A DNA stretch of 63,997 nucleotides, the filler included, from Stramenopiles sp. TOSAG23-6 (Eukaryota): the NCBI GenBank assembly GCA_900128565.1. It is 13 parts of 13 records of this genome, joined end to end, with 100 filler letters (N's around TTAATTAATTAA, not from the genome) between each part and the next. Parts side by side here need not be neighbours in the genome. Positions count along the whole stretch, not along the records: positions 4,968 to 9,827 come from LT637032.1; 12 more parts are not named here. The stretch is one strand, 5' to 3'. Position numbers and translations under genes: made by a program. The notes beneath the pieces were generated by a model. That model had not been told where the DNA came from, did no database searches, and was given only the letters and a program-made list of their open reading frames with translations. Positions 1 through 63,997 of this stretch are shown here, piece by piece. Every line of letters begins with the position of its first letter. Position 1 is the stretch's first letter.

Positions 1-798
1 TTTAGAAATCCAAATAATCATGTGATCACATGCGATGATCTCAAAGCATTTTCAGCAGCGTTTGGAACAACTTCTGGAGCACCCATGTTTCACATGTCAG
101 GTATTACACCAGAAGTATCTATTGTAGAAAATTCATTAGAAAATATAAAAACAGAGGAATATATTGAGTTAACTGTTGAAGATCTTGCGAATGTTTGGAT
201 TGATCTAGATAATTCAGATACGGTAATTAATAATAAAAAATCAAATGATGTAGAGAGCTCAAATAGTAAAAATATTAACACGGATAAGAATACAGTAGAA
301 TTAATAGCCATTGGTAATCCTCATCTTTCACTGAATGAGTGCGCTTGGCTTGCTTCAATGTGTAGTAATGGAGAATCAAAACATCCTGATGTTTCTGTTG
401 TGGCAACTTTAGGTAGAGAAGTGTTTACATTGGCTGAAGAAGCTGGATATATAAAAAAGCTAGAAAAATTCGGTATGAAATTTATCACTGATACATGTTG
501 GTGTATGTTAACAGAACCTGTTGTCCCTCCACTTTCAAAAACACTGATGACAAACTCAGCTAAGTTTGCACATTATGGCCCAGCACTATTACAGCGACAA
601 GTTCGATTTGGGTCCATGATTTCGTGTTTGAGCACTGCACGCACAGGAAAAGCACCTCCATTGCCTGCATGGGTTAAACAGCATGGTTATCGGGGATTCT
701 GTACAACCACAAATAATACTTTACAATATAATACGTTGTGTAGTGTAAGGCGTTTAACTTTATGCTTTCTTTCAAGAGGAAAACGTTATTTTCGATAG
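1..798 (+). CDS. Aconitase X (AcnX/DUF521) catalytic-domain protein, 5'-truncated
   Basis: Motifs LKAFSAAFGTTSGAPMFHMSGITPE, AIGNPHLS, DTCWCM and MTNSAKFAHYGP; the frame is open from the window start. Confidence 0.8.
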   Translation, partial: FRNPNNHVITCDDLKAFSAAFGTTSGAPMFHMSGITPEVSIVENSLENIKTEEYIELTVEDLANVWIDLDNSDTVINNKKSNDVESSNSKNINTDKNTVELIAIGNPHLSLNECAWLASMCSNGESKHPDVSVVATLGREVFTLAEEAGYIKKLEKFGMKFITDTCWCMLTEPVVPPLSKTLMTNSAKFAHYGPALLQRQVRFGSMISCLSTARTGKAPPLPAWVKQHGYRGFCTTTNNTLQYNTLCSVRRLTLCFLSRGKRYFR

Positions 799-6877: not shown

Positions 6878-9376
6878 ATGGGAATCGCTGATTTTGAAGG
6901 AGAAGAAAGAGAGTCTGATTATGGTACTATTCTTAAAGTTGCTGGGCCCCTTGTTATTGCTGAGAAAATGAAGGGTGCAGCAATGTACGAACTTGTGAGG
7001 GTTGGCTACGTAAAGCTTGTCGGTGAAATCATTAAGTTGGAACGCGACACAGCTTATATTCAGGTTTATGAAGATACATCTGGTTTAAGTGTAGGTGACC
7101 CTGTATTGCGTAAACGTCAGTTGCTAAGTGTTGAATTAGGCCCTGGTATCATGAATTCCATTTACGATGGTATTCAACGGCCTTTGGACACAATAGAACA
7201 GGTTTGTAATTCGTCCTTCATTCCTCGTGGTGTTGACGTGCCTTCNCTAAGCCGTGATAAGTTATGGAATTTCAAACCTCTTAACTTTTCTGAAGGAGAG
7301 CCAATATCCGGAGGATCCGTGTTTGGTGAAGTGTATGAAAATGAAATTTTCACTTCCCACAAAATCATGTATGCTTTCAACCTTCAATTTCAAATTCATT
7401 TTTTTTATACAAAATTTTGTACCTAAGGTTTTCTTTTGTGACATATTTTCCAAAAATACATGGTCCCTCCTAACTTATTTAATGGTGGTGGTACAGTGAC
7501 GAAAGTGTATGGGAACTTAAGTGATGGCCATGATGAATGGAATGTGGACGAACCTGTTCTCGAAGTATTAGATGAAGTCACTCGCAAGAAACACACCTGT
7601 ATGTTATTTTTTTGGTACGAAATTTTGTACCTAATGAAATTTTTTTTTTTGAATTTTTAACCCTACCCCTACATTTATTTTTTTCAATATGGATTTGTTT
7701 TTTTAAAAATTATACCTAAAACAATTTGAAATTTGAAATATTTTTTCGCATTACATTAACTATGGCACACTTTTGGCCTGTTCGTATTCCTAGACCAGTC
7801 AAGGAAAAATTGGCTGGTGATTCTGCTCTCATTACTGGGCAGCGTGTCATCGATGTATGTGTTCAAGTGTTCAAAGAGACTAATTTCATTTTTTTTTTCT
7901 TTTTTTTTTCATTTTTTTTTTCTTTTATTTTTCTTTTTTTTTTCTTTTTTTTTTCTTTGAAAATTGTATACCAAACTTTTTTTTTATCCAAATATATATA
8001 TATATATATATATTTCACAATACATGTACTATTTCCATCAGTCTTGGGAGGTACATGTGCAGTTCCTGGAGCTTTTGGATGTGGGAAAACAGTTATTTCA
8101 CAAGCTCTCTCGAAATTTGCAAATACTGATGGTATTATATATGTTGGCTGTGGTGAACGAGGCAATGAAATGGCTGAAGTCTTGAACGATTTCCCAGAAT
8201 TAAAAATGGAATTCCCAAGAGGAAGTGGTAAGCAAGTTGGTGTAATGAATCGTACCTGTTTAGTAGCAAACACATCAAATATGTACGTTTTTATCATCAA
8301 TTTCCAAATTTNTNTTTTTTTATAAAAATTTCGTGCCTAACAAAAAAAATATAAAAAAAACATATTTTTTCACAATGTATGCCCGTAGCTGCACGCGAGG
8401 CTTCAATTTACACTGGTATTACTCTCGCCGAATATTATCGTGATATGGGACTCAACATTGCGATGATGGGTGACTCAACATCTCGTTGGGCAGAAGCTCT
8501 TCGTGAAATTTCTGGACGTCTCGTACGTTTTCATTTCAATTTCGAATTTATTTTTTTTTTCATACGAAATTTTGTACCTAACAAATTTTTTTAGATTTTT
8601 GAAATATTTTTCACAATACATGGGGAAATGCCTGCTGATTCTGGATATCCTGCATATTTGGGCGCTCGTCTTGCAGCATTTTATGAACGTGCTGGGTGCT
8701 GTAGTTTACTGGGGAGTCCTGATCGGCGTGGAAGTGTTACGGTGGTTGGAGTATGTTTTATTTTTTTCAATTTTTTATCTAAATGTTTTTTTCGTACGAA
8801 ATTTTGTACCTAAAGATTTTTTTTTGAAATGTGTTTTCACAATATATGCTGTCTCTCCACCTGGTGGAGATTTTTCAGATCCTGTCACTTCGGCCACACT
8901 AGCTATTGTTCAAGTATTTTGGGGACTGGATAAAAAACTTGCACAACGTAAACATTTCCCTTCCTTGAATTGGTTAACATCCTACACGAAATATGAAAGT
9001 GTTTTGCTACCTTATTTTGAAAATATTCAAGCAGGGTATAAAGACCTCCGTGCCACGTGTCGTCAAATTCTTCAAATAGAAGATTCTCTTCAGGAGACTG
9101 TATGTTTTATTTTTTTTTAACAAAAAAATCGATTTGTTTTTCGTACGAAATTTTGTACCTAACAAATTTTAAGTTTTTTTTTTCAAATATTTTTCCAAAA
9201 AACATGTTCAATTGGTTGGAAAAGATTCATTGTCCGAAGATCAAAAAGTTGTTCTCGAAACTGCGAAAATTATTCGAGAAGATTTCCTTCAACAAAATGC
9301 TTTTACGGAGTATGACTACACATGTCCAATTTATAAATCAGTTGGCATGCTACGTGTCATCATTCACTTTTATCAT
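6878..9376 (+). CDS. ATP6V1A: V-type ATPase catalytic subunit A, 3'-truncated. Exons 6878-7368, 7462-7598, 7757-7854, 8026-8282, 8381-8522, 8622-8750, 8848-9099, 9206-9376
   Basis: GAFGCGKT P-loop, [34 protein letters not shown] and GAVSPPGGD are restored on joining the exons. Confidence 0.97.
7369..9205 (+). other. Seven GT-AT introns: 7369-7461, 7599-7756, 7855-8025, 8283-8380, 8523-8621, 8751-8847, 9100-9205
   Basis: Boundaries are fixed by conserved V-ATPase A residues; all start GTAYG and end CAT or TAT. Confidence 0.9.
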
Positions 9377-9501
9377 GTACGTTCTCGTATTACATTAGGG
9401 TTAGTTTTTTTTTTTTTTTTTTTTTTTAAACCCAAAATTTTTTTTTTTTTTAAAATTTTGTTCCCAAAAATTTTTTTTTTTTTTTTTTTTTCACAATACG
9501 G

Positions 9502-9827
9502 ATGGATTTATTTTTCAAAGTGTGTCCGATTCCAGAGGAACGTAAACAAAGAGTTCATTTTCATGATTTTATGATGAATGTTCATAGTCGAATTCGTGCA
9601 GTTAAAGATAATCAATTATTGCAACAGAAAAAATTACAAAAATCACAAAATCAAACATTTACTGGTAACTTGGATTTATCAAATGTACGTTTTTATCATT
9701 TATTTCAAAAAAAAAAAAAAAAAAAAATATTTCGTACGAAATTTTGTACCTAACGATTTTTTTTTTAATTTCAAAAAAAAAAAAAAATATTTTTTCACAA
9801 GATATGAATCCGATGCAATATCAATTG
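9502..9827 (+). CDS. AFG1: AFG1/ZapE-family ATPase, internal exons (GT-AT intron 9685-9805)
   Basis: MDLFF ... [15 protein letters not shown]. Confidence 0.8.
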
Positions 9828-9972: not shown

Positions 9973-11704
9973 GGGTTTTACATCCACCGAAGTTGAATTT
10001 TTAGTTAGAGAATCTGATACTGATGGTGATGGATCCGTTAACTTTTATGAATTTGCTCCCCTATGTTATGACATGCTTGTAGAGGTTATTGCAAAACAAT
10101 TACCAGATGAAGAAGAAGAAAGAATAGCAAATCAAAAGTTGATGGATGCGAATAAAAAAAAACTTGCCAAATTACTACAAAAACGATATCGAGGATATCT
10201 AGGTCGCCAAAAATCAAAGCAGCGCCGAGCATATCTAAATCGTGACTATAAAAAAAACGACAAAGTTGAAGTTTTATACGTATCAAATGGGTTTTGGTAT
10301 CCTGCCACTGTAGTTAAAAGGTACGCGGGTGGTTTAGATTCTTTTGGAAATTCTAGACTAGTGAACTCTTATAAAGTTCGTTGGTTGGTTGATAATTCCA
10401 TAGATGATAATATACCGCGTCGTAGAATGCGTGAAGGTAATGAACGACATTGGATTCTACATGAACGTTTGAAAGAGAAAGCTCGGATTGAGGCTAAAAT
10501 GGAACAGTTACGAATGGAAGTAGATAGAAAAAAGAAACGGAAAGAAGAACAATTAAAAATGATAGAAAGTTTTTGGGAAGCTGGATTCTCTGGCCCTCTT
10601 TTCCAAGTACAATACTCTGGCGAAACAGATGGGAAAACTGGTATTAGACACGGTGTAGGTAAAATAACTTGGCCAAATGGGGATATTTATGAAGGGGAAT
10701 TCAATAATGGCCTAAGACATGGCAATGGGACAATGTCGGGAAGAAAAGAAGGATCTCGCGAGGGATATATTTACAGAGGTCAATGGAGGAATAGTTTAAA
10801 ACATGGATTGGGTAGAGATGTACGTTTTTATCACTTATTCCAAATGTATTACTTACATGTATTGTTTAAGAATGTATCATTTAAATGTATCATTTAAATG
10901 TATCATTTAAATGTATCATTTAAATGTATCATTTAAAAATGTATTGCTTTACATTGTTCAAATTTTGTAATGGTATAATAACTTAACACCATTTTTGTGA
11001 CATATATGTTTTACTCAATATGAGTATGGTTCATGTGGATTTTATGAAGGTAAATTTTGTGATGGATTATATTCAGGGAAAGGCACACTGGTAACAACAA
11101 GTGGGGTCTATCAAGGACATTTTGTAAAAGGACAAAAAGAAGGCAAAGGAAGAATGAAATGGACATCTGGTGCATCATATGATGGTATGTGGCATAATGA
11201 TAAATTGCATGGCAGAGGACAATATATAGGGCGTAATCCAAGTACGTCTTTCATCATGAATTTCAAGTTTTAATTTCAAAAATAACCCTAATTTCTAAAA
11301 AAATTCTAAACAATTTGAATTTCTATTTTTTCACAATATATACACAACAAAGCAATATGATGGATTTTGGGAATGTGGTATTCGTTGCGGAACTGGTACT
11401 CAGGTGTATGGTAATACTATCGATCAACAAACATTTGTATTGAAAGAAGTGCTCAAGAACAAAAAAGATGTTATCCCTTTAAAATATCAAGGTGACTGGG
11501 TAGATGGTCAATGGCATGGTATGTACGTTTTCATCATTATTTTTTTTTTAAAGTTGTTTAAAAATGTTTTGTACCTAACGTTCTTTTTACTGAAAAACGA
11601 TAAAACGATCACAATACAGTGGTATTATTACACATATAGTTAATATGAAAAAGACTTCTAGACGGGGAGAATTTAGGTTAGGCAAATTGCACCATTGGAT
11701 GTAG
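9973..11704 (+). CDS. EF-hand + IQ + Tudor-like + MORN-repeat protein, 5'-truncated. Introns 10820-11021 (GT-AT), 11242-11341 (GT-AT), 11523-11619 (GT-AG)
   Basis: DTDGDGSVNFYEF; LQKRYRGYLGR; repeated YEGEF..G.RHG.G continuing across the joins. Confidence 0.8.
10871..10936 (+). repeat. Intronic 13-bp tandem repeat (AATGTATCATTTA), about 5 copies
   Basis: Directly visible. Confidence 0.85.
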
Positions 11705-12069: not shown

Positions 12070-13094
12070 TTACTCATCCAAAAAAATACCAGCCATGACA
12101 TCTCCCCATGCTCGTCTTTGAACATCACGAGCATTCCAACCACCCGCGGCTTTTGCGTGTTGTCTTTTCTTTCGTGCCCTACTAGTTTCCTCACCTGTCC
12201 CTATAACGTAAAAAAATATTTCAAAAAAAAATATTGTTTGTTAGGTACAAAATTTCGTACGAAAAAAAAAATTTTAAAAATTGTCAGTAACAAAAACGTA
12301 CATGCGTTGCGATTTCGTCTACTTCGAAATGAATGCATCAGAGGTACAGGTTGTGCTGTTCTCATGGCCCCATGAAATGGTTGATTTGTGTTTTGCGAAT
12401 TTAATCCTAAAAGAGCACCAGATGCAACATCAGCACCACCAGTTGACTGAACAGTTGATTGAGTTACGGATTCATTTACTATTGGGAGCGGTGCTATTTC
12501 TTCAGCATAGGATTCGACAATTCTAGATCTATGGCGGCTTCTACGCTCACGACGATGTTGTTTCTTTGATAGGAGAGACTCCTTTTCTATACGATTGGAT
12601 TCTTCACGTTTTTTCTTTTCAAGTTCAGTGGCTTGTCTCTCTCCCTGTGCTTTTTTAGAACTATTTAAGTCAATTTCGTCACGATGCTTTCTTCGGTATC
12701 GTTCTACTTCACGTTTTGTCGCATCTTCATCTACATGGAAAGCCAACTTATGCACAATCTCCTCTCGTGTTTCCAAATAATCATTAAATGCTCGAAGTGT
12801 TTCAAAGTCTGTCTCTGTTTTGTTGTACGATGCTAAAATACTCTGACGGATTTTGAATATTCGATCACAGTCCATTTGTGACTTTGTCTTTGTACTAAGC
12901 CCCGCTTTTGTAATAATTTTATTACATACTGGACATGGTACAGAAGACCGGCCCGTGAATATACGATTAATACATGTTCCACAAAAACAATGGCCACACT
13001 GCGATATAAGAAAACGGACAGTTCTGTCAAAATAACTAACATTTCGATTCTGACACTTCTGGCAAACTGCTGAACTTGAAGTATTTCCTCGCAT
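12070..13094 (-). CDS. MNAT1: CAK/TFIIH assembly factor MAT1; GT-AG intron 12201-12301
   Basis: RING CGHCFCGTC..CPVC; FNDYLETREEIV; the last exon gives AAGG..RRAW. Confidence 0.9.
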
Positions 13095-19961: not shown

Positions 19962-21494
19962 AATAGCAACAAGTAATCGCCCCCCAAATGATTTATATTT
20001 AGATGGTTTAAATAGAGAATATTTTTTACCTTTTATTCAAACTTTACAATCACATTGTAAATTATATGACATGAATGAAATGAAAAATATAAAAATGATG
20101 GAAAAAACAGACCCTAACCCTAACCCTAACCCTAATCAAACAACTTTCAAAAAAAATAAAACAATGAAAAAAATTGATCATAGGAGACTTTCTACTGCTT
20201 TTAGTGATACGAATGAAACTTCATTATATAGATTTCCATTATCTAAAAAAACATCAATTGAATTTTATGATTTTTTAAATCGTAATTATGTAAAAAATTT
20301 GTATGTTTTTTTTTATATTTTCAATTTTTTTTTTTGGTTTTCATACGAAATTTTGTACCTAACAATAATTTTTTATTATCCAAAAAAAAAAAAAAAATAT
20401 TTTTAACAAAATATAAAATTTACAAAAATGAGTATACCAACCATCTTTGGTAGACATGTTACTATTGAAAATGGCTGTATTGATGGTGGAATTTGTTATT
20501 TTAGTTTTGAAGAAATTTGTGGGTACTCTAGTGATAAGAATGCCACGTGTTATCGTGCGATTTGTGAGCATGTTTGTTCTCATCATTTAATTTTTTTTGA
20601 AATGTTCAGAATTTTCAAAAAAAAAATTTTTTTTTTTTTTGAAATTTAAATTGTATACAAAATTGTATAGTAATACCTAACAAAAAAAAAATAGAATTTG
20701 ATATATTTTTTTACTCTACATTTCAATATAATTGCAATTGATGGAATACCAATATTAAATGCATTACCATCATGGGTCGTTCCATCAAGTGGTGGTCATA
20801 ACGCAGCTAGGAGATTTATTACAATGATTGATCAATGTACGTTTTTATTTTTTTTTCAATTTTTTATCGAAAAATTTTTTCATACGAAATTTTGTACCTA
20901 ACGAATTAAAATTTTTTTTTTTCACAATAAATGTTATGAAAGAGGAAATTTGTTATTATGTACTGCTAATGCAAAACCTGATGAATTGTTTATTTCAGAT
21001 GCAGCTATTAGTGCAACACCAAGTCCAATGGTGACTGATATTGATTATAATCCTTTAATGGAAACTGAAAGAAAGGATTTTATGAGTACAAATAAAAAAA
21101 ATAAAAACAATAAAAAAAATGAAAAAAATGAAAAAAATAAAAAAAATGAAAAAAATGAAAAAAATGAAAAAAATACTACAAATGACACAAACAATAATAT
21201 AGACCCATCACAAAGTGTACTAAATAATGATTCTAGAAATATTGCATCAGTAAAAGAATTAGAATTTGCTTTTCAAAGAGCTGTACGTTTTTCATATGAT
21301 GAATTTCGAATTTATTTTTTTATATCATGAATTTCGAATTTATTTTTTTCATAAATTTTTTTTTTGTATTTCACATTTTTTTTTGACCAATTTCAAATGT
21401 AAAATATTTCTTCACAATACACACATCTCGTTTAATTGAAATGAATAGTACAACGTATGTAGAAAAATGGAAAGAAAAATATAGAAATGAATAA
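19962..21494 (+). CDS. AFG1: AFG1/ZapE ATPase, C-terminal part. Introns 20301-20414, 20572-20721, 20837-20932 (GT-AT) and 21283-21422 (GT-AC)
   Basis: IATSNRPPNDLY, FLPFI, ARRFITMIDQCYE and FAFQRATSRLIEM are restored. Confidence 0.88.
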
Positions 21495-34836: not shown

Positions 34837-35906
34837 TTAATATATACGAATGCTCTATTAAACGCTCCATTATAAAAGAGACATAGCACAAAAATTGTTG
34901 AGACATTATTAGCAAGATATGTGGGCACATTTCATTTTTTTGAGCTTTGAGATCTTCCGAGATGTTTGTATTGTGAAAAAATATTTTTTTTTTAATTCGT
35001 TAGGTACAAAATTTACTATGAAAAAAAAATGGTATGTAAAAATGCACGATTTGAAAACTTACATTTACCAACATATTTAATCAACGAATTTAAAACTATA
35101 AAATTATGTGGTTTTGATAATAATTCGCCGATATGGCCGATACGATATCCAAGAACATGTATAAATGATAGACAGACAAACACAAATTTAATTTGAACGG
35201 AAATTTTCTTCTCAGAGCATTTGGAATTGTTAGGATTACTAGGGTTGGGGCTCCCGATACATTTGAGTTCACTAAATACTTCAAATAGCTGGTGTAAAAG
35301 TAATGGACCAGTTTCATCTGGTATATGAGGGCATAACATCACGTGTACAATAAATGGAACTAATATTCGAAATATCATCGCGTGTTGCTTCGTCTCATTG
35401 AACAAAAGATGCACATCAGATAGAATGTTAGCTGATGTTGATGGACAGACACGAATCAGCGAAATAAAGGGATGTATATTTTCAGTAATGGAGTACTGTG
35501 GAAGTGACTGGTTATTATCATACGCTGTTTCAACTTCGCATATAAGTAGTTGACGAATTGCAGCTGAAACATGACAAGACGACATGCCTGGTTCAATCTT
35601 GGTGGCTGCATCTAAAAGAGAAGTGTAACACTGTAACGCTGAAAGCACGCCCATCTCGTAAAGCTGTATTAACCCAAAACATGCTGCGTGTGCAACAATT
35701 GGAACCTCATAGAATGATGCGCAAAATTCACAGAGAAGCTTAAAATATGCGGATTTCATTGTGATCGTCTGTGGTGTCTGTGGTAACTTTGAGCTTTCAT
35801 ATATTAACTTTAGCAATTGACGAACTGATTCACGCTGGATATTTCTTTGAACAGTCCGTGAACGCACACGAAGGAGACTAATAATTTTATCATAATCCTT
35901 TTTCAT
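34837..35906 (-). CDS. HEAT/ARM-like protein N-terminus (possibly focadhesin-like); intron about 34966-35062
   Basis: Helical 280-aa exon with HPFISLI; the frame continues after a family intron. Confidence 0.5.
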
Positions 35907-40162: not shown

Positions 40163-43100
40163 ATGAAGACAGAAAACATTACCGTGTCTGTTCGTTTTCG
40201 TCCCATGAATGAGCGGGAGTTGAATAAAAATGCAAAGACGTCGTGGGGTTGGTATGTTTTATTTCCACATTAAAGTATTTGCGTGTTGCATTATGTACTG
40301 GTTTGTGTTTCTATCGAGTCAAGCTGTGAAAATACTTTCTAACATCAATTTGTATTCATTTGTATTATTTTTTTGTCCTCCTATTTTACACTACACAGTA
40401 TGACAGAGCATAAAAGTGTGTGTCGCAAAGATAAAGATGGTAAATTAGATACATCAATGGCATTTTCATATGATCATGTATTTAATGGTGATGATGGGAC
40501 AAGTCATGTATACAATCAAGTGGCAAAACCGATTGTTCAACAATTCTTGGCTGGCATCAATGGAACAATTTTTGCTTATGGTCAAACCTCAAGTGGAAAG
40601 ACATATACAATGCAGGGTGATGGTACAGTAAAAGGTTGTGGAATTCTACAAAACAGTGTTACTGAGCTATTTGAATGTATCAAGCAAAATCAAAAACGTC
40701 AATATATTATTCATGTCTCATATATTGAAATATATAATGAAAATATTAGAGATCTTCTACGAAGCGACGGACCAATGTGTAAAGTACGTGAAGATAGAGA
40801 TCGCGGTATATATGTTGAATCATGTGATTTATTAGTACTTAATGCTTCTGATGTGTTATCTCTATTATCTCGTGGTGAAAGAAATCGACACGTGGCATCA
40901 ACTGCAATGAATGATACATCGAGTCGGTCACATACTATTTTTAAAATGTCTCTGGAATCTCAAGAATTAGAAATTAATTCAGAGACTGGAGAGTCAACTA
41001 CAATAGGTCCCGTGCTACAAAGTTCTCTAAGTCTTGTCGATTTAGCAGGATCAGAAAATGCAAAAAACACGCGCGCTAGTGGAACTCGACTTCGAGAAGG
41101 TGGAAATATTAATAAATCATTACTTTCATTATCTCGTGTAATGTGTCAAATATCAGATGGACATNCTCATGTACGTTTTTATTAGACATTTCAAATGTAT
41201 CATATCATGTAAATGTATTTTTTTTACAAAGAAAATTTTGTAGCTAACGAATTTCATACTTGAAAGATATTTTTTCACAAAACATCCAAGTTTCAGAGAT
41301 TCAAAATTAACTTGGATACTAAAACCATCTTTAGCTGGTAATTGCCGAACTGCATTAATTGCATGTGCAACTTTAGCTGATCAATTTGTAGAAGAAACTC
41401 AATCAACGTTAAAATTTGCAAGTCGTGCTAAAAACATTAAAACAAGTGTTGCAGTGAATATGTATGTTTTATTTTTTTTTTTCAAATTCGATTTTTTTTC
41501 GTACGAAGTTTCGTACCTAACGATTTTTTTAGATTTTTTTTTAATATTTTTCCAAAATACATGATTTTAGATGATAAAGCAAGAATGAATCAATTGAATA
41601 AAGAAGTGAAGCACTTACGTGCAAAACTACGTGTTTTTGAAGAAGGAAATTCAAACTTCAAAAAGAGATTAAGTGGTGGCAGTACAAAAGGATTGATGAG
41701 ATTTGATGATGATGATGAAATGACGCATAATCAAAAATTACAAACACAATTACATTGTTCTGAGAATGAAAAGTTGAAGCTTGAGCAAAAAGTAAATGAT
41801 CTAAAAAATATGATTGTTAAAAATGGGTTTTTATCTCGTACTAAACATTCACAAAATGGAGGCATGAAACGATCTGGAGAGTGGATGGCACCTTTAAGTG
41901 TTGAAAAATTGCGAGGAGCGAACAAAAGGCGTAAGAAAATTCGTGGCACTTGTATGATTTATTTTCATCATTTTAATTTTAAATGTATTCTTCAAATGTA
42001 TTTTTTTGTATCATGTCTAACAAATTTCAAATTTGATATACTTTTTAACAATATCTGGTATAATTTATCTGATAATTTTAATTGGCGAGATGACATTGTT
42101 GGTGGTGATAAAGATGAATTTAAGAGAATTAAAGCATCTCATTCACAAGACACGAAATCAATGTTGGATGGAAAGTTTGCTAAATTAGCTAATGGTTGTG
42201 ATGAGAATGAAAATGTTGTAAATACTAAAAAATCCGAAATTCCAAAAGTAAAAAGAAGCGTAAGTTTTGACGTTAATTTTGAAAATGATAATTGTAAAAC
42301 ACCAACACAAAAAAAAACACCAGTGTCTCGTTTTTTTAGTGTACATGCAGCATTAACACCAAGTGCAGATACACCACGTAAAGCAGCTTTAAAACAAGCT
42401 CTTGTTAATATGTACGTTTTCATCATGAATTTCAATGCAAATGTTTTGTTTCCATTTTTTTTTTATTGTTGAAAATTTTATATCTAGGAATTTTTGTAAC
42501 GTTTTCTTTTATGATCTATTTTTCACAATACATGGAAGAGAAATTAGAAATTGCAGATGCCAAGTCTGTAGAATCGAGCAAAATCGTTGAAGATATGAAA
42601 ACAAAATTAAACGAAATTCAAGAAAAGGCTGAAATGGCTGAAACGCAAAAAAAAGATTTAGAGAAAGCAAATGCTGAATTGAATGCTGCTGAATTAGAAG
42701 TAGAGAGAGCACGTATGTTTTGTGTATCCCTATTTTGAAAAATATTTTTCAAATTTCAAATGTATCTATTTTTCAAATTTACAATTTCTGATGTCTCCTA
42801 CATTTCTAATATATTATTTTTTCTAATACATTTCAAATTTATGTATATATATATCCCCGAAACTATAGTAATGAGAGCTGAAGATTTGAGTGGAAATTTG
42901 TTGGAAATTCATCAAGCAAAACAACTTGAAGAAGAAATTGAACAACATGAAAATGAAATTCAAAGACATGAAGATGAAAAAAGGTTGGTTGAAATGGATC
43001 AATATCGCAAAAGATTAGCACAAATGGAAGAAGAAAAAACTAATTTAAATGAAAAAAACTGCGAAAATGAAAAAAATTTTGATAAGATAAATTTGAAATT

Positions 43101-44474: not shown

Positions 44475-44715
44475 NNNNNNNNNNNNNNNNNNNNNNNNNN
44501 NNNNNNNNNNNNNNNNNNTTAATTAATTAANNNNNNNNNNNNNNNNNNNNNNNNNNNNNNNNNNNNNNNNNNNNAAAAAAACAAAAAAAACAAAAACTTT
44601 TTATGTATTTTTTTTTCATCATGACATTTTTTTTTTTTTTTTTTTTTTCATACGAAATTTCATACCTAACAAATTTTTTTTAGATTTTTTTTCGAAATAT
44701 TTTTTCACAATATAT

Positions 44716-44841
44716 AATAATAAAAGTGTTATTACACTATATTCAAAATGGGATTCACACGAAATGGTACGAATTATTGGTAGAAAGAGAGCAAAACATA
44801 TGCTGCACTCAAAAGCAAAAGATGCGTTTTTGTTTTGTTGA
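44716..44841 (+). CDS. Small last exon missed by the ORF track (NNKSVITLYSKWDSHEMVRIIGRKRAKHML...FC)
   Basis: Follows the family acceptor CACAATATAT; open frame to TGA. Confidence 0.45.
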   Translation, partial: NNKSVITLYSKWDSHEMVRIIGRKRAKHMLHSKAKDAFLFC

Positions 44842-45294
44842 TTTTAAAATTTCTTAGGTACAAAATTTCCTATGAAAAATAAATTCGATTTTTTTGTTTA
44901 AAAAAAAAATTTTACAATTTTGTTTTATATAATAATATATGATTTGTTAACATAGTATTTAATAAAAACTAAAAATAAAAATTTTACATTTTTGTTTTTT
45001 ATTTACAAATTGTTTTTGATAAAACAATGAATGAATTTTTTTTTTTCAATTTTGATTTTGTTTTCGTACGGAATTTTGTACCTAATGGGTTTTTTTTGAA
45101 ATATTTTCCAAAATACATAATAAAGAATGAATGATTCATTATATATATAATTATTTTCATTTACCAATTTTGATATTGAATGGTGTTATTTTGGGTTGCG
45201 GTTTTAAATTTTTTGATTTCGCTTCTTTTTTTGATTCTTCTTCTTTAATTTTTATATTGTTTTTTTATTTTTCCCAATTTTCGTATTGAATCTA

Positions 45295-48200
45295 TTATAT
45301 ATACACAAATACATTTGGAGAAATTCCATTTGGAATTGGACCAGATAGATTGTTGTCTTTCAAGATCACGTTTTGGAGCTTTGTAAGTCGTAGAATTTCC
45401 TTTGGTATTGAGCCAGATAGTGTGTTGTTGCCCAAATGCAATTTAACGAGATTTGTTAGTTGACCAATTTCTTTTGGAATTGAACCAGATAGTTCGTTTC
45501 CCGACAAGTACAATCTTGTAAGATTCGTTAGTTGACCAATTTCCGTTGGAATTGGACCAGATAATTTGTTGCCATTCAAGTACAAATATTCGAGATTTGT
45601 TAGTTGACCAATTTCACTTGGTATTGGACCAAATAGTCTGTTGTTTGACAAGTACAAAGTAGTGAGTTTTGTTAATTGACCAATTTCCTTTGGTATTGGA
45701 CCAGTTAGTTTGTTCATTGACAAGTTCAATTCAATAACACTTCCTTCTTTATTACACTTGACTCCTTGCCATTTACAAATATCTGGATCTTTTATCCAAT
45801 TATCTTTACGATTCCAATTGATTCCATCATTATTATCATACAATACAGTTAAAGCATGTTTGTCCAATAACTCGCGATAAATACCTTCTACACGTTGTAA
45901 CCATTGGGTTGATGACTCCTCTGGTATTTTTTTATTGACTGATTTAATATCTGCATTTGCATCTAGAGATTTAATCAGTTTTATCACATTTTTAGATATA
46001 ACACGTGCGCGGCTGCCAAATTCAGCGTTACTTACCTCGTTCATCCCACGTGAAACAGGAGCTAAACGAGCTAATTCATCATTAGTTAAATTGGAACCGA
46101 AGCTTGAACTTACGTCGTGCCCTGCTTGTAGTACTTGTTCTACCATAGTTCCTGTACTTTCTCCGTTAGTCGCACCAATACCAATATCGGTATGAATTCT
46201 ATTAATCCCGAATGTTACTCGTGTCCCATCTTTAAAGTGAAAAATAGAAATATTCTCAGTTGCTTCAACTTTCACAACTTTTTTACTGTTTAATTTTTCG
46301 TCTCGAACAATTTTAGGTATGAGTTGATCATTTTTATTACCATGACCAAATTGACCATAAGTTCCATCTCCCCATGTGTATACATCACCATTTTCAAGTA
46401 ATACAACAGTGTGTTTATAACCAGCTGATATCTGCTTTACTTTTTTATCTTTTAATTCTTGAACAAGTGTAGGTATGAGTTGATCTTTGGTATCACCATG
46501 ACCAAGTTGACCATTATATCCACTTCCCCATGTGTATACATCACCATTATCTAATAATGCAACAGTGTGAAAAGAACCAACTGATATTTGTTTTACTTTT
46601 TTACCTTTTAATCCTTTTATAAGTTTAAATGTTTTTTGATAAGTTCTATTACCATGACCAAGTTGACCATTAGATCCATCTCCCCATGTGTATACATCAC
46701 CATTTTCAAGTAATACAACAATGTGTCGAGGTCGAGTAAACATGTATTTTGGAAAAATATTTCAAAAAAAAAACTTTAATTTGTTAGGTACAATTTTTTT
46801 TTACCAAAAAAAAAGGAAAAGTTCCTACAAAAAAAATAAAAAATAAATAAAAGTAAAACATACATCTGCTTCACTTTTGTATTTCCAAATTCTTCAACAA
46901 TCCTAGGAAGAAGTTGATTTCGATTATCTAAAGGACCATAATATGCCCATATGTATACAGTACCATTCTGAAGAAATGCAACACAATAGAGAGTATGACA
47001 AAACATTTTTCCTTTTTCAGATGTATATGTCATTTTTTTATCAATACCTGTTGCTTGATGTTTTTTATCAATAACTGTTGCCGAAGTGGCGGCCATACTT
47101 CTATACGTTGCTGAAGTGGCGGCCATACTTCTATACGTTGTTGGACTTGATATTGCTGAAGAGGCGGCCATACTTCTATACTTTGTTGGACTTGATATAT
47201 ATGTATAAGTAGATGATCTGTTTAGTAATGGTTGAAATAATTTTGAAATTGCTGTACTTTGTATTCTTGTATTCCAATCTGGTACTGTCTCAGCTTTTTG
47301 TTGTTCCCAAAATTGTTTTGATTTCATTTCAGGAGAAATATAATTCAAATAATTATATCTAAATGATACAATTAAAGAAAGTAATGGCAAAATAATACGG
47401 GATTGTAATTTTTGTGCTTCAACTTGTGCTTCAACTAGTGTCCTATAGGGTTCTTTTGGAGAATCCAGATATCTGATTATAGAGGCTGGAGGTTTTCTTC
47501 GTGAAATATTTTCCATATTTTGTGTATTCCTTTTTCCAGATGATGATATATTCGATGGAAACAAAGATGGCTTTTGAATATTTGCCGCCGCCGCAGCTCG
47601 AGCTGCCCCTGATGTGGGTGTGGTAGTGCTCCCCTTCGCCACAGCTGTCCCTGTTGTCATAATAGCTATCGTCGTTGCCGCCATTTTGTTAAATTCATCA
47701 AAAGTAGACGGTTTCAAAACTTTAGGTGAAACTCTGCGGAAACTACCGCGTGGTTTCAAAGATAATGGTAAAATGTTATGACGTATGGTCGGTGCCGCCA
47801 CAGCTGCTCCTGCTGCCGTTGCCGCCGTTGCCGCCGCAGCTGCCCGTGTCAGCACCATTTTGGGGAATTTCTTGTGTACATTTGTTTGTAAAGATTTGCC
47901 TAATGGATTTTTGAGAGCTTGTTTTCGAAGAGGCTGAACTATTGTATCATCCTTATTTTTTACAGTACTATTTAATGGGGATTCATCTCTATCATTAGTC
48001 TGAATGATATTTGCACCAGCAGCAACAAGCAATTGAACTATTTTTTCATGTCCATTCTTTGAAGCAATAAGCAATGCAGTTTCTCCGTCTTCATCAGCCA
48101 GATTGACATCAGCACCAGCAGCGATAAGTCGTTCAACTATATCTTCATTACCATTCTCTGAAGCATGATACAATGCAGTTTCTCCGTATTCATCAAGATG

Positions 48201-58394: not shown

Positions 58395-58749
58395 TATTAT
58401 AGGATATATATATTAGTTTTTGTATATAGAATTATATATATAGAAATCAACCCAGAACAAACGAAAACGATTGTCAGGTCAAAAACGAAATGTTCACTGG
58501 CTCTAAAAGGGCTGAATCAATTTGGAACAAACCTGTTATTTTCACAAATTTGATCGGCAAAATCAGTTACAGAATGTCTCTCAGACTCTCTCTCTCATAT
58601 TTACAAGTATAATACTATAAAGAAAGCATCAAAATACTTTTAAATAGTATTTTCAATCTATTGAATTTGATATATATAAACAAATCCGTCGTATACGCCA
58701 CACAAAGGACCATCGTGATTACCTCTACTTACATACTTGACTATAAAAA

Positions 58750-59291: not shown

Positions 59292-59752
59292 TTTTNNNNN
59301 NNNNNNNNNNNNNNNNNNNNNNNNNNNNNNNNNNNNNNNTTAATTAATTAANNNNNNNNNNNNNNNNNNNNNNNNNNNNNNNNNNNNNNNNNNNNTTTTC
59401 AGGATCAATTTTAAATTTATTTATTTTTCATACGAAATTTTGTACCTAACAAAAACTTTACTACAAAAAATATTTTTCCAAAATACATGGATACCATGAA
59501 TATTCAATCAGAGAAAAAATAGCAAGCTCTTGTACAGTTCAAAGTAGTATCTCAGATTCTAGTAGTATCAGATGTTTATCAACGGATGAAATCTATTCCA
59601 GTATTCACAAAATATATAGTCCTACTCATCTTTGTGGGTGTCACGATTGTCAGTGTATGTATGTTTTAATTTTTTTTTTGTATGATTTTTTTTTCGTACG
59701 AAATTTTGTACCTAACGAGTTTTTTTTTTTGAAATATTTTTCCAAAACGTAT

Positions 59753-62508
59753 TTCTCCTAAAAAGGTCCAGTGAAACTCGAGGTGAAGAACTAGATGATT
59801 TTGATTATGCTTTATTATCTGGAATCTTTGTTGCAAGTGCTAGATTGTTACATGAAAAAAAGGTACGCAAATCTAATTTAGATAGCCATGAAAAGTTGAA
59901 AAAAGATTTGGGTACAATTTTAATTAAGAATCTCGTGCCATTGTACGTTTTCAATTTCATTTTGTTTTTATTTTTGGTACGAAATTTTGTACCTAACGAT
60001 TTTTTTACTTAAAAAAATATTTTTCACAATACGGACTCCGTAAGTTTCAGGCTGATAGTGCCACCATTGAACAATTAGTATCTTTGCCTCGATATTTTGA
60101 CATTGAAAGTTATGAAGTTCATCGTCAGCAAAAAAGTTTCTCTAGACTTTTAAACATGTTGTCAGATTTATATTTAAAACACGGAGATGAACGCGTTTTA
60201 CAATCAATTTCAAACACATTTTTATTTCTAAAAGATGGAAAGCATTCTCTAAAAGACGAAGTCGTTGTACTCGCTCAGAAACTCACAAGTAATATAGTTA
60301 ATAGAGTTCAAGAACTACTACGTGATGATGAGACCGATTACCAAAAGGCACAATCTGTTAAAGAAACGTCATCAAAAATGAAGACTAAGGCACGCGCATC
60401 AAGTGTGAAAATTTCAAAAGAGAACGACAAAGAGACTAACCTTCTATGTTTCCTACGCCGTTTGCGAGCTTTATTTGAAAAAATTGATGTCAGTTCGAGT
60501 CTCCCCGCTAATCTATATAGCGCTTTACATACAGTCATTTCTCGACGCACTGAGGATGGCCTCCATTTACGTTCATATAGAGAAGATCCGCATTCTGGTG
60601 TTGTTGTGCAATCACTTTCTATTTTAGCGACTACATTGGGTCATGTATGTTTTTATCTTCAATTTCAAATGTATCAAACTTATTTTATTTTCGTACGACA
60701 TTTTGTACCTAACAGTTTTTTTTCGAAAAATACTTTTCACAATACAGGAAGTGTATACACTCCAGCGTCTTTTGGAAGATCAGTCAGATTCTGTCGGTGT
60801 TACCGGTGGCGATGATAATGAAGAAATGAAAGAAACCGATGAACTAGATGAAGCCCGGCTCATTGTAGAATCGTTAGGCAGCTACCGTGATAATATCAGT
60901 AATCGTTTATGCTCTATCATGGCAATTGATAGTTCCGATTGTCAGTCAATCAAGGAAATAAATCTCATCCGTGCATATAAACTTCAAGCATATTCTATCG
61001 GATTTGATATGCGCTCACTTTTTAGTGAAGCTGCTTCAAACGGTAGTGGACCGTATCAGAAAGATTCAACATATAATGAAAAAGGTTTCATATATCCACT
61101 CAAATCTCTTCAATATGACATGCCACCAACACTTATCCGTGATTGTCATCGATTTTTCAATGAAGAAATGGTCACAGGACGTGAGCGAAATGCAAAGCTG
61201 CTTTTAAGAAAAGAGAGAAAGAAAAAAGGAGATACATTTGCAGAAAAAATGGCAAAAGCTGAGCGTAATACAGCATTACTTCGATTATCAGATTCAGAAA
61301 TTTCAAAGACGGTATTTCCTCTTTTCCCAGCATTAGCTCGAGTTCTCAACTCTAATCCTAAGGCAAAACGTGAAGCAGCTGTTCTTGTATCTTTAATTAA
61401 TGAATCAGGAAAAACTGGATCCGGTATTGTAAATGATTGTACAAAGACATTACAGCGTCGGGTCGGTGGTAAAGAATCATATCTAAAAGTTCAAATGGCG
61501 GCACTTCGTCATACATATCGACAATTGCAAACATTAGCTGAAACCGGATCTGATGAAGATGAGGATTCCGATAATGAAGAATCGAGTTCTGCTTCTAAAG
61601 TATACCAAGCATATACAAATCTCCTGTCTCTCGCTAGTCGTCTTTCTTCGTTCTATGGAGTCGGTACTGTACCTGTAAATCTCCGCGTCGCATGGGAAGA
61701 TCATATATTAAGTGGTGTAAAGTTCGCGTTTCAGCAACTACCTAATCAATTAGGATTCCTCGATGTGATGGATTATTATGTGCGTAAATTGCCAAAAGCT
61801 GCCAAATCCAGTGTATTGAAAAAGTTTGAACTTTTGGCAGATGAAATGGGTGTCATAAAAGCCGCGCGTGAGAATCAGTTGAAAGTTCGTGCTCAAGGCA
61901 ACCATTCTGATGATGAAGACGATGATGACGATGACGTAAGTGAAAGTATGTGGGCTGCGTATACTGCTTTTCGTGACAGACTTGAAGAAGATTGTCAAAC
62001 AAATAAACGTAAACGTGGTGGTGTCGTTACTAAAGAATCGTTACATAAAAATGATGAAAGTCAACAAAATATTCGTCCGAGTAAAATATCTCGGAGATCT
62101 ACTGATGGATCGAGAATATCTCGAGAAAACAATGATACAGAATTTGCTATAAACAATCTCAGNGATGATGAGTCGGATAATGGTTTTGGTATAGAGTCAA
62201 AAAGTGCAAGTGCGCGTTTGATTGAAGCTGTAGACTCTGATGTGAGTGATTTTGATAATTCTATCGATCATGAATTTGGTAATTCTATGAGCAATAATCG
62301 CCGAAAACGACAGAAGACACTTAAACCTGAGTTATCATTTGCGAAGCATCGACGTCATAGTACACATAGGTCATCATATGATACATCTAGTGCTAGTTTA
62401 AAAAGTGGTCAGAAACGGTCCGCTGTGGATATTGACTCTGATGATTCAAGTGTAAATGAAGGAGATTACGATGGGCTTCCTGAACCTGTCATGAGTCAAG
62501 AGTTCTAA
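59753..62508 (+). CDS. Cohesin subunit STAG/SCC3, C-terminal part. Introns 59943-60034 (GT-GG) and 60645-60747 (GT-AG)
   Basis: LVPLLRKFQAD, LPRYFDIESY, KHGDERVL; acidic tail. Confidence 0.7.
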
Positions 62509-62817: not shown

Positions 62818-63997
62818 ATGGTGAAAGCTCGCTGTCTTGCACTAAATGTCTTGAGCTCTATATCCAAGATAGAAGCAGGTCGAGAAGCAATTATAAAAGA
62901 GAGCGTGGTACCGATACTATTTGGCTTGTTATCCGATTCAAGAGCAGAACAACGTTTCGCAGCTCTTCAGGTAGTTAACGTTCTTTCGGGATTTAAAAGT
63001 GGAAGAAAGGCGCTTCTTGCTGGAGAATTTCCAAAAAGTGCTCTACTATCAGCTTTGAGCGACGAGTCTAGTGGTGGAGCTCTCCAACTATGTATGCTCC
63101 AATCAATAGCAAATTTGACGGAGATGTCAACTGGAATTGATCTGATACTGGAGTGTAATGCATTACCAATTATTATACAAATACTGCGTGGATCCAACCA
63201 AAACGAAAAAGAAGAATCTGATGAAGTGGAAAAAGATTCTACCTTTCGTCGGAAAGTATTGATTGCGACACTTCAAACTGTCTGGAATCTTTCACACGAC
63301 GCTAAAGGTAACGAAATGTGTATGAAAGAGGATAGTGTTGCTGCTATATGCAAATCAGATGCGAAAATTCTTGAAAAAGCACCTGAATGGTCCATTGTAG
63401 AGAGATGTGCGAGTGGTGCGTACGTTTTCAAAATTGAATTTCCAATTTTTTTTTCTTAGAAAATTTCATACCTAACAAAACAAAATATATATATTTTTCA
63501 CAATATATTTTAATGGCATTGTCCACTTCCTTAGGTGGTAAAGTGTGCATATCAGAAACTTCAGAAGGAGTTGATGTCTTATCTGCACTAGCAGCAAGAG
63601 AAGATAAATCAATATCAACAAATGCATGGCAGTGTATGCGAATGACTGCGAAATATCTTCCTGTTGGACCTAGATTTGTCCTTTCCCTACTCGATCAAAC
63701 AAAACTACTCGTTGATGTCTTTGGTGTCGCTGCTTTACATCATCTTGGAAATCTTCTCAATGACAATGAAGGTCGAAGTGAGATTGCAGAATTAGCAGCA
63801 GATGCTATTGAGCTTATTACACGAAATGAGGAAGGACAAAAAGCAGCACAACAGGTATTATACATGGAAATAGGTCTTGCTCGAGTATTGTGTAATAATA
63901 AAAGTAATAGAGCTCAAAGAAGTGCTGCATCTGCACTTAATTGTGTCTGTACTGGAAACAGTGGTAAGGGCTGTTGTCGAGAACTAAACAAGGCGAT
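62818..63997 (+). CDS. Armadillo-repeat protein (RSPH14-like); GT-AT intron 63420-63508; runs off the window
   Basis: ARM-like helices; the join gives CASGALMALS. Confidence 0.6.

Follow-up and report, generated by a model that had tools for sequence, protein, structure and literature searches.

How does a cell find the end of an intron that does not close with AG? The intron-final AG is among the most constant signals of eukaryotic genes, and few lineages are known in which GT-AG introns have been lost on a large scale. The question was raised by a stretch of 63,997 nucleotides (here called the window) from Stramenopiles sp. TOSAG23-6 (GenBank assembly GCA_900128565.1), in which an original prediction, made by hand from the sequence, had read most introns as running from GT to AT, above all those of the gene for the catalytic subunit A of the V-ATPase. 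The window is not a single locus: N-linkers connect its 13 contigs, each 4.6-4.9 kb long, and the sequence has about 33% G+C and many single N letters. The V-ATPase A gene lies on the plus strand of contig 2 (4968-9827).

Introns of the V-ATPase A gene and of other genes in the window

Exons of the V-ATPase A gene were placed by tblastn with three full-length homologues (P0004, an environmental protein from a 2258-nt contig, P0011 and P0013). Exon ends fell at all seven motif positions at which interruptions had been predicted (HKIM/VPP, KHTL/TMAH, RVID/VLFP, NTSNM/PVAARE, GRL/GEMPAD, VVG/AVSPP and QET/VQLVG, the slash marking the junction), and these positions are therefore real. Removal of the seven introns gave 1677 nt of joined exons with 0 stops and a product of 559 aa that was 87% identical to P0004; when 8 homologues were aligned to it with MAFFT, none of the seven junctions had a gap within 8 residues on either side against any of the 8. 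The expectation that an AT end restores the conserved motifs was thus borne out.

All seven introns begin with GTAYG and end in AT (Table 1). Short repeats at the ends allow the cut to slide by 0-3 bases in either direction with the product unchanged; for introns 2, 5, 6 and 7 no slide reaches GT-AG, GC-AG or AT-AC, and for introns 1 and 3 an AT..AC reading is formally possible by sliding (the former is frame-consistent, with 65 codons open downstream). GT..AT is the sole reading that fits all seven introns.

Public runs were searched for this stretch, and sequence from it turned up in a single small data set as well as in seawater metagenomes and polyA metatranscriptomes of 8 studies. Contigs from RNA and environmental runs were placed on positions 8315-9827 only (there are N letters at 8312 and 8314), introns 1-3 and the mRNA 5' end lying outside this range. 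A 272-nt contig from a polyA RNA run (X6, record 16, depth 3.5) covered 8378-8522 and 8622-8653: its joint from 8522 to 8622 skipped 99 nt with GT..AT ends and 1 base of play (intron 5), and the 94 loose letters before 8378 matched the end of exon 4 by eye, so that intron 4 is also absent (3 bases of play). A second contig (run X3, record 9, 196 nt, depth 3.3) passed from 8749 to 8848 with one replaced letter (8750) and joined exon 6 to exon 7 without 8751-8847. Three V-ATPase introns (4, 5 and 6), which are 3 of the 26 introns of the curated set described below, were accordingly exactly absent in run contigs, one of them certainly in RNA. An unused AG sits 27 nt before the end of intron 5, and in the polyA contig the intron had been removed at AT with this AG ignored. 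Most exon bins were without cover in the run mapping and many apparent joints were cross-matches among copies of the intron family; the very high depth over intron cores is not a measure of copy number.

Elsewhere in the window, 3' ends were placed by aligning the conserved 3' block of the intron family minus its last two bases, followed by a test for the opening of the downstream frame; a few intron ends, including that of 26459-26629, were read by hand. The curated set held 26 introns from 8 contigs and at least 8 genes. Left out of it were 16758-16668 (frame inconsistent, N nearby), 21283 (ending in AC or AT), 42713 (TA-repeat end), 9685-9805 (at a contig end) and five family introns whose 3' end lies beyond the contig. 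All 26 introns start with GT (25 with GTAYG and 1 with GTAAG); 21, spread over 8 contigs, end in AT, 3 in AG, 1 in GG and 1 in AA, 23 of the 26 being without AG. The hand count of about 22 GT-AT against about 5 GT-AG introns was close. In nearly every row whose motif match could be used, it was shift 0 that opened the long frame downstream, and not a shift of +/-1 or 2. Gene identities given in the original prediction were recovered with Pfam for V-ATPase A, kinesin, AFG1, MORN and ANK/RCC1/LRR, and weakly for SIN1-CRIM and ARM. In the kinesin gene, the Kinesin profile ended at position 272 in the exon before intron 41171-41285 and resumed at 279 at residue 3 of the next exon.

The remaining splice signals were close to the textbook ones of the major spliceosome, with a yeast-like donor. 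At the 5' site, GTA occupied +1 to +3 and G occupied +5 in all 26 introns, and T was found at +6 in 25, which fits GTRNGT. Position -2 was A in 25 of 26, and the last base was T in 21, G in 4 and A in 1. A CTAAN motif was found in 24 of the 26 introns, 31-52 nt before the end in 23 of these, and was followed by a U-rich tract (the curated introns are 50% T), in keeping with a YTRAY branch-site motif ahead of a pyrimidine tract. Of the 24 introns that have CTAAN, 8 contain an AG between this motif and the true end that is skipped, the RNA-checked V-ATPase intron 5 among them. The claim that a 3' AG is dispensable for the removal of these introns is supported by the 23 of 26 introns that lack it and by the run contigs, which show exact removal at AT for three. 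The original interpretation is thereby partly supported, a modified spliceosome being its conjectural part.

Table 1. Positions of the V-ATPase A exons, the introns and other features, counted along the whole window.
Feature	Position	Strand	Ends	Remarks
V-ATPase A exons 1-8	6878-7368, 7462-7598, 7757-7854, 8026-8282, 8381-8522, 8622-8750, 8848-9099, 9206-9376	+		tblastn
V-ATPase intron 1	7369-7461	+	GTATG...ACAT	93 nt, phase 2; homology; slide -3/+1
V-ATPase intron 2	7599-7756	+	GTATG...ACAT	158 nt, phase 1; homology; slide -1/+0
V-ATPase intron 3	7855-8025	+	GTATG...ACAT	171 nt, phase 0; degenerate core; homology; slide -2/+3
V-ATPase intron 4	8283-8380	+	GTACG...GTAT	98 nt, phase 2; homology; polyA RNA contig
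V-ATPase intron 5	8523-8621	+	GTACG...ACAT	99 nt, phase 0; homology; polyA RNA contig
V-ATPase intron 6	8751-8847	+	GTATG...ATAT	97 nt, phase 0; homology; run X3 contig
V-ATPase intron 7	9100-9205	+	GTATG...ACAT	106 nt, phase 0; homology; frame-consistent
Family intron by contig end, outside the 26	9685-9805	+	GTACG...ATAT	family alignment; 7-8 codons remain, frame test powerless
MORN gene intron	10820-11021	+	GTACG...ATAT	202 nt; in-frame acceptor, choice inferred from keeping the 23-residue MORN period
MORN gene intron	11242-11341	+	GTACG...ATAT	frame-consistent, 99 codons; flanking exons match MORN family
MORN gene intron, AG end	11523-11619	+	GTACG...ACAG	translation retains MORN-repeat HGxG motif
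Intron, AG end	12201-12301	-	GTACG...ATAG	frame-consistent
AFG1 gene intron	20301-20414	+	GTATG...ATAT	frame-consistent, 77 codons; AFG1 family match
AFG1 gene intron	20837-20932	+	GTACG...AAAT	frame-consistent, 131 codons
Intron	23839-23995	-	GTACG...ACAT	alternative in-frame end 3 nt earlier (TA) possible
Intron with doubled core	24145-24301	-	GTACG...ATAT	frame-consistent, 88 codons
SIN1-like gene intron	26459-26629	-	GTACG...CTAT	frames read manually
SIN1-like gene intron	28187-28277	-	GTATG...ATAT	frame-consistent, 232 codons upstream, 553 downstream; weak CRIM domain match
Intron, AA end	34966-35062	-	GTAAG...ACAA	frame-consistent, 290 codons upstream, 84 downstream
Kinesin gene intron	41171-41285	+	GTACG...ACAT	frame-consistent
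Kinesin gene intron	41462-41562	+	GTATG...ACAT	frame-consistent, 302 codons
Kinesin gene intron	42412-42533	+	GTACG...ACAT	frame-consistent, 323 codons upstream, 67 downstream
Intron separating ANK and RCC1-LRR parts of one gene	46742-46863	-	GTATG...ACAT	frame-consistent, 836 codons upstream, 481 downstream
Intron	59655-59752	+	GTATGTATG...GTAT	in frame solely with this donor-end pair
Intron, GG end	59943-60034	+	GTACG...ACGG	frame-consistent, 75 codons upstream, 259 downstream
Intron, AG end	60645-60747	+	GTATG...ACAG	frame-consistent, 216 codons upstream, 586 downstream
ARM-repeat gene intron	63420-63508	+	GTACG...ATAT	frame-consistent, 202 codons upstream, 162 downstream; weak Arm match
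Core example (CATACGAAATTTTGTACCTAAC)	8560-8582	+		short GTAC palindrome, then directly CTAAC branch-site-like motif
Weak small nucleolar RNA-like matches	22492-22541 (+), 58474-58536 (+), 61405-61483 (-)			Rfam

Some of these genes showed further features. The first MORN intron (10820-11021) contained an internal tandem repeat with a unit of about 15 nt (AATGTATCATTTAA-like, 5 copies), and the AFG1 gene requires another intron at 20540-20720, the start of which resembles a diverged family 5' end (GTGAG or GTTTG, not GTAYG). The 3' region of the V-ATPase A gene (9377-9684) was odd: exon 9, from about 9501, could not be aligned to the C-terminus of the homologues and contained what looks like a diverged second copy of the end segment of exon 8 (CPI...RV..HF...S..RA.KD), and the region may represent an exon that is duplicated or used alternatively. 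The first contig starts in an open reading frame (1-795, plus strand) that matched Aconitase X (PF04412, E 5e-48). A scan of the window with Rfam gave no small nuclear RNA gene and no match at gathering scores; with E up to 1, three weak matches resembling C/D-box small nucleolar RNAs (E 0.04-0.9, far under gathering scores) were listed and are probably due to chance.

The intron family and the possible source of its AT ends

A point absent from the original prediction is that these introns form one repeat family with subfamilies, in which the final AT is likely to be a target-site duplication. A 20-mer scan for the family core, CGTACGAAATTTTGTACCTAAC, with up to 3 mismatches gave 33 matches (30 unique) in about 63 kb, where 0 were expected by chance. 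Introns of unrelated genes aligned over their whole length, and an alignment of 21 introns from 9 contigs resolved four blocks: GTAYGTTTT; CGTACGAAATTTTGTACCTAAC together with the T-run that precedes it; a U-rich stretch; and AAATATTTTTYMCAAWAYAT. The conserved 3' block can be written as TTTTYMCAAWAYAT (also given as TTTTYMCAAWAY). Family introns are short (89-202 nt) and T-rich, and fall into two subfamilies, one pairing GTATG donors with a CCAAAA 3' block and the other GTACG donors with CACAA (6/3/0/9, Fisher p=0.009). Six of the 24 printed contig ends fell inside a core, as would be expected of a high-copy repeat. Five cores had no GTAYG donor within 130 nt. Three donor-less cores lay at 44650-45085, in both orientations and within 500 nt, next to where the ANK/RCC1/LRR gene has its 3' end. 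Possibly these copies are not in coding sequence; if so, a mobile element would be favoured.

The sequence around the insertions was biased. For 15 of the 26 introns the preceding exon closed with AT, a dinucleotide with a background frequency of 8-10% (binomial p=3e-9), and the first exon base after the intron was G in 17 of 26. The family is introner-like and probably transposon-derived, and the AT at the end of its members is a probable 2-bp duplicated target site.

Taken together, these features suggest how such an intron could be inserted and removed. Each copy supplies its own 5' splice site (GTAYGTTTT) and also brings the GTAC palindrome with the CTAAC branch-site motif, the U-rich tract and the conserved 3' block. 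The last two intron bases, usually AT, would copy the exonic AT that precedes the insertion, and a cut after the second AT would remove the element together with one copy of the duplication and restore the coding sequence exactly; the target-site-duplication reading would thus explain the source of the AT. Removal would be performed by the major (U2-type) spliceosome of the host, with the penultimate A retained and the last base free (T > G > A). What marks the 3' site is probably the conserved 3' block, rather than a scan that stops at the first AG or a measured distance, since the distance from CTAAN to the end varies and upstream AGs and TATs are skipped. In spliceosome structures the last G of the intron pairs with the first G, and the preceding A pairs with the branch adenosine; the replacement of the final intron G by U is a small change.

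Copies of the family were also looked for elsewhere. Scans of genome-contig and viral-contig collections for the core pattern gave no match, and a scan of metagenome contigs gave two, L001 and L002. In L001 (1-1076), the end of an exon and the first two-thirds (5' part) of a family intron are followed by unrelated AT-rich sequence; its terminal sequence is presumably a sequencing adaptor, and the contig is probably a chimera. L002 was rejected as a family copy, being a chance match inside a bacterial gene. Within the window, a 446-aa open frame on contig 8 (36087-37424, plus strand) carried a DDE_3 transposase domain (PF13358, E 1.5e-14), which we take to be of the IS630/Tc1-mariner kind.

Evidence for and against the alternatives

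We consider it likely that these spliceosomal introns are introner-like and stem from a transposon, that their 3' AT arose by duplication of the target site, and that they are removed by a machinery that tolerates a last base other than G. Several observations weigh against this reading. As regards removal, the RNA support consists of two short contigs of low depth (3.3-3.5), both of which differ from the window by 1-3 letters and so come from other strains; run X3 is labelled just 'DNA?', and if it is DNA the joined form would be an intron-free allele, not spliced RNA. No exon-exon joints were found in runs X9 and X10 over 8315-9827, and contigs of X9 and X3 continue past a putative donor at 9377 (V-ATPase intron 8). 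For 19 of the 26 introns, and for the GG, AA and AG ends, the evidence consists of the frame and the family alignment; the frame test had an exception in family intron 16758-16668, in a stretch rich in N, and the branch position was taken from the CTAAN motif. As regards origin, the exonic AT was missing before 11 of the 26 introns, and where present it could instead reflect an insertion-site preference or a splice-site preference, the latter of which would give the same picture. The inverted ends were just 4 nt long (GTAT/ATAC), or 6 nt with the AT, no empty insertion site was seen, and no autonomous partner element could be tied to the family: around the DDE_3 frame there were no convincing inverted repeats, and neither a link to the intron family nor matching ends were found.

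The alternative that survives best, though unlikely, is a multiplication of minor-spliceosome (U12-type) introns such as that of Physarum, in which the minor system accepts a range of 3' ends that includes GT-AT. The U12 donor and these introns have their initial GTAT in common. The full U12 donor RTATCCTT, however, occurred in 0 of 26 introns, with G at +5 in 26 and T at +6 in 25 of the 26, and half of the donors were GTACG. The U12 branch motif usually lies about 10-20 nt from the 3' end, and 9-12 nt has been reported for the branch motif of the Physarum minor system, against the 31-52 nt measured here for CTAAN; a second, unrecognised branch site nearer the intron end is possible.

Somewhat less plausible still is that the joined forms are not spliced RNA at all and reflect strains without the insertions or removal of the element at the DNA level. 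Presence/absence polymorphism is usual in young introners, both joined contigs differ slightly from the window, and the contig without intron 6 comes from run X3, whose kind was merely guessed as DNA; its joined form is compatible with a presence/absence allele of a strain or with cDNA. The contig without introns 4 and 5, however, derives from a polyA RNA library, and strong motifs for a 5' splice site and a branch site are present in the elements. The window's own V-ATPase copy, an essential conserved gene, has all exons intact (0 stops, 87% identity to P0004) despite at least seven insertions; absence at the DNA level does not explain this, and the repair of this copy must take place in its RNA. 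To our knowledge, programmed DNA elimination has not been described in stramenopiles.

Removal without a spliceosome, guided by pairing of the intron ends as in the nonconventional introns of euglenids and hemistasiid diplonemids, appears very improbable. One fold (41462-41562) did pair GUAU with AUAC, but RNAalifold found 0 consensus pairs over the 21 aligned introns, five single folds were no better than shuffles (z -0.1 to -0.9), and GTACG donors combined with ATAT, GTAT and AAAT ends without the covariation that would keep such pairing. The borders are strongly conserved, unlike those of nonconventional introns, and a U-rich tract and CTAAC are present. An artefact, either a consensus error turning AG into AT or a dead gene copy, can practically be dismissed even in an assembly as poor as this one (many single N, contigs of about 4.85 kb), given that the AT end recurs in 21 separate introns on 8 contigs, that the independent run X9 holds a further family copy ending in ACAT (...CCAAAATACAT) and followed by exon-like sequence, that no alternative letter is listed at 8620-8621, 8846-8847 and 9204-9205 (where the cover is mostly from other family copies), and that the V-ATPase exons are intact.

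Source lineage, known systems and significance

The named best matches of V-ATPase exon 1 were all stramenopiles (Fucus, Phaeothamnion, diatoms and oomycetes). In an IQ-TREE phylogeny of 23 sequences, the V-ATPase A of the window clustered with unnamed environmental sequences (support 100/99), and this group was nested in a 19-row clade with oomycetes and ochrophytes (100/99), outside which fell an alveolate, a green alga and animals. Judged by this tree, the source is an uncultured marine stramenopile clade. An origin from marine diplonemids, for single cells of which non-GT-AG introns have been reported according to papers that cite the work, was considered and dropped, as the homologue list and the tree place the V-ATPase A gene with stramenopiles.

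The original prediction knew of no comparable genome. A literature search, with most subscription papers outside its reach, found no paper on a GT-AT-dominated genome; genomes dominated by other non-GT-AG introns are, however, in print and offer the closest parallels. Non-canonical introns dominate the genome of Amoebophrya (PMC11282704), about 97% of introns are non-GT-AG in the hemistasiid diplonemids Artemidia and Namystynia (PMC12621601), and most introns of Fritillaria borealis are non-GT-AG, stem from small transposons and are removed by a U2-type spliceosome (PMC11282704, PMC13326754). GT-AT itself has been described before, as an infrequent terminus of U12-type introns.

Introners are another close likeness. 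In Micromonas pusilla, Aureococcus, dinoflagellates and others, as here, many near-identical short introns occur in unrelated genes of aquatic protists, and one splice site is described as borne by the element and the other as formed at the target-site duplication (PMC11282704, PMC12130899). Described introners yield GT-AG or GC-AG introns, whereas the present family is mostly GT-AT, and of the inverted ends and empty sites of introners just 4-6 nt ends, and no empty site, were seen here. Introner surveys take annotated introns as their starting point, and a family whose splice sites look unfamiliar is re-checked or dropped (PMC12130899); given this dependence on annotated, familiar ends, an AT-ending family would be missed.

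Fritillaria shares with the present case transposon-like introns with a 3' end that seemingly comes from the insertion site. This end is described as formed from duplicated exon sequence, an exonic TAC giving ...AC (PMC11282704), and 3'-site recognition as changed through duplicated and diverged U2AF subunits (PMC11282704, PMC13326754). Fritillaria is an animal (a tunicate) and not a stramenopile protist, its 5' ends are also non-canonical (AG-AC, AG-AT) and its ends are diverse, whereas here the 5' site is strictly GTAYGT and the last base alone departs. The introns of euglenids and hemistasiids resemble the present family in the dominance of non-GT-AG ends and in a suspected transposon origin, but have no conserved borders and extensive end pairing, in contrast to the conserved borders and lack of a supported structure found here; they also belong to Euglenozoa, not to stramenopiles. 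The U12-type introns of Physarum polycephalum are similar in that a single class of introns has multiplied within one lineage and that its 3' ends, which include GT-AT, are relaxed, but their donor and branch motifs are unlike those described above.

With a 5' site and a branch motif that are textbook-like and only the last base changed, these introns would allow the choice of the 3' site to be studied in isolation. They also tie a change of the 3' end to an intron family that is spreading and seems to build this end from its insertion site. The same logic has been put forward for Micromonas and for Fritillaria, to which the present lineage, unrelated to both, would add a third case. Most genes of the source organism would be broken by gene finders and splice-aware aligners built on the assumption of AG. 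For assemblies of uncultured marine stramenopiles, a published annotation gives just 0.36-0.56 introns per gene (PMC5269757); that such low values are caused by missed AT-ending introns is speculation.

A wider proposal seems to us evenly balanced between right and wrong: that this is a free-living marine stramenopile in which most nuclear introns come from one mobile, AT-ending family, with a major spliceosome freed of the need for a last G that would find the 3' site through the 12-nt block of the element, past upstream AGs. If this is true, a protist lineage would have re-tuned the second-step check of the 3' site (U2AF35, Prp8, Slu7, Prp18 and Prp22) in a change independent of that in Fritillaria, and the published gene sets for the group, built with GT-AG-based tools, would miss most introns.

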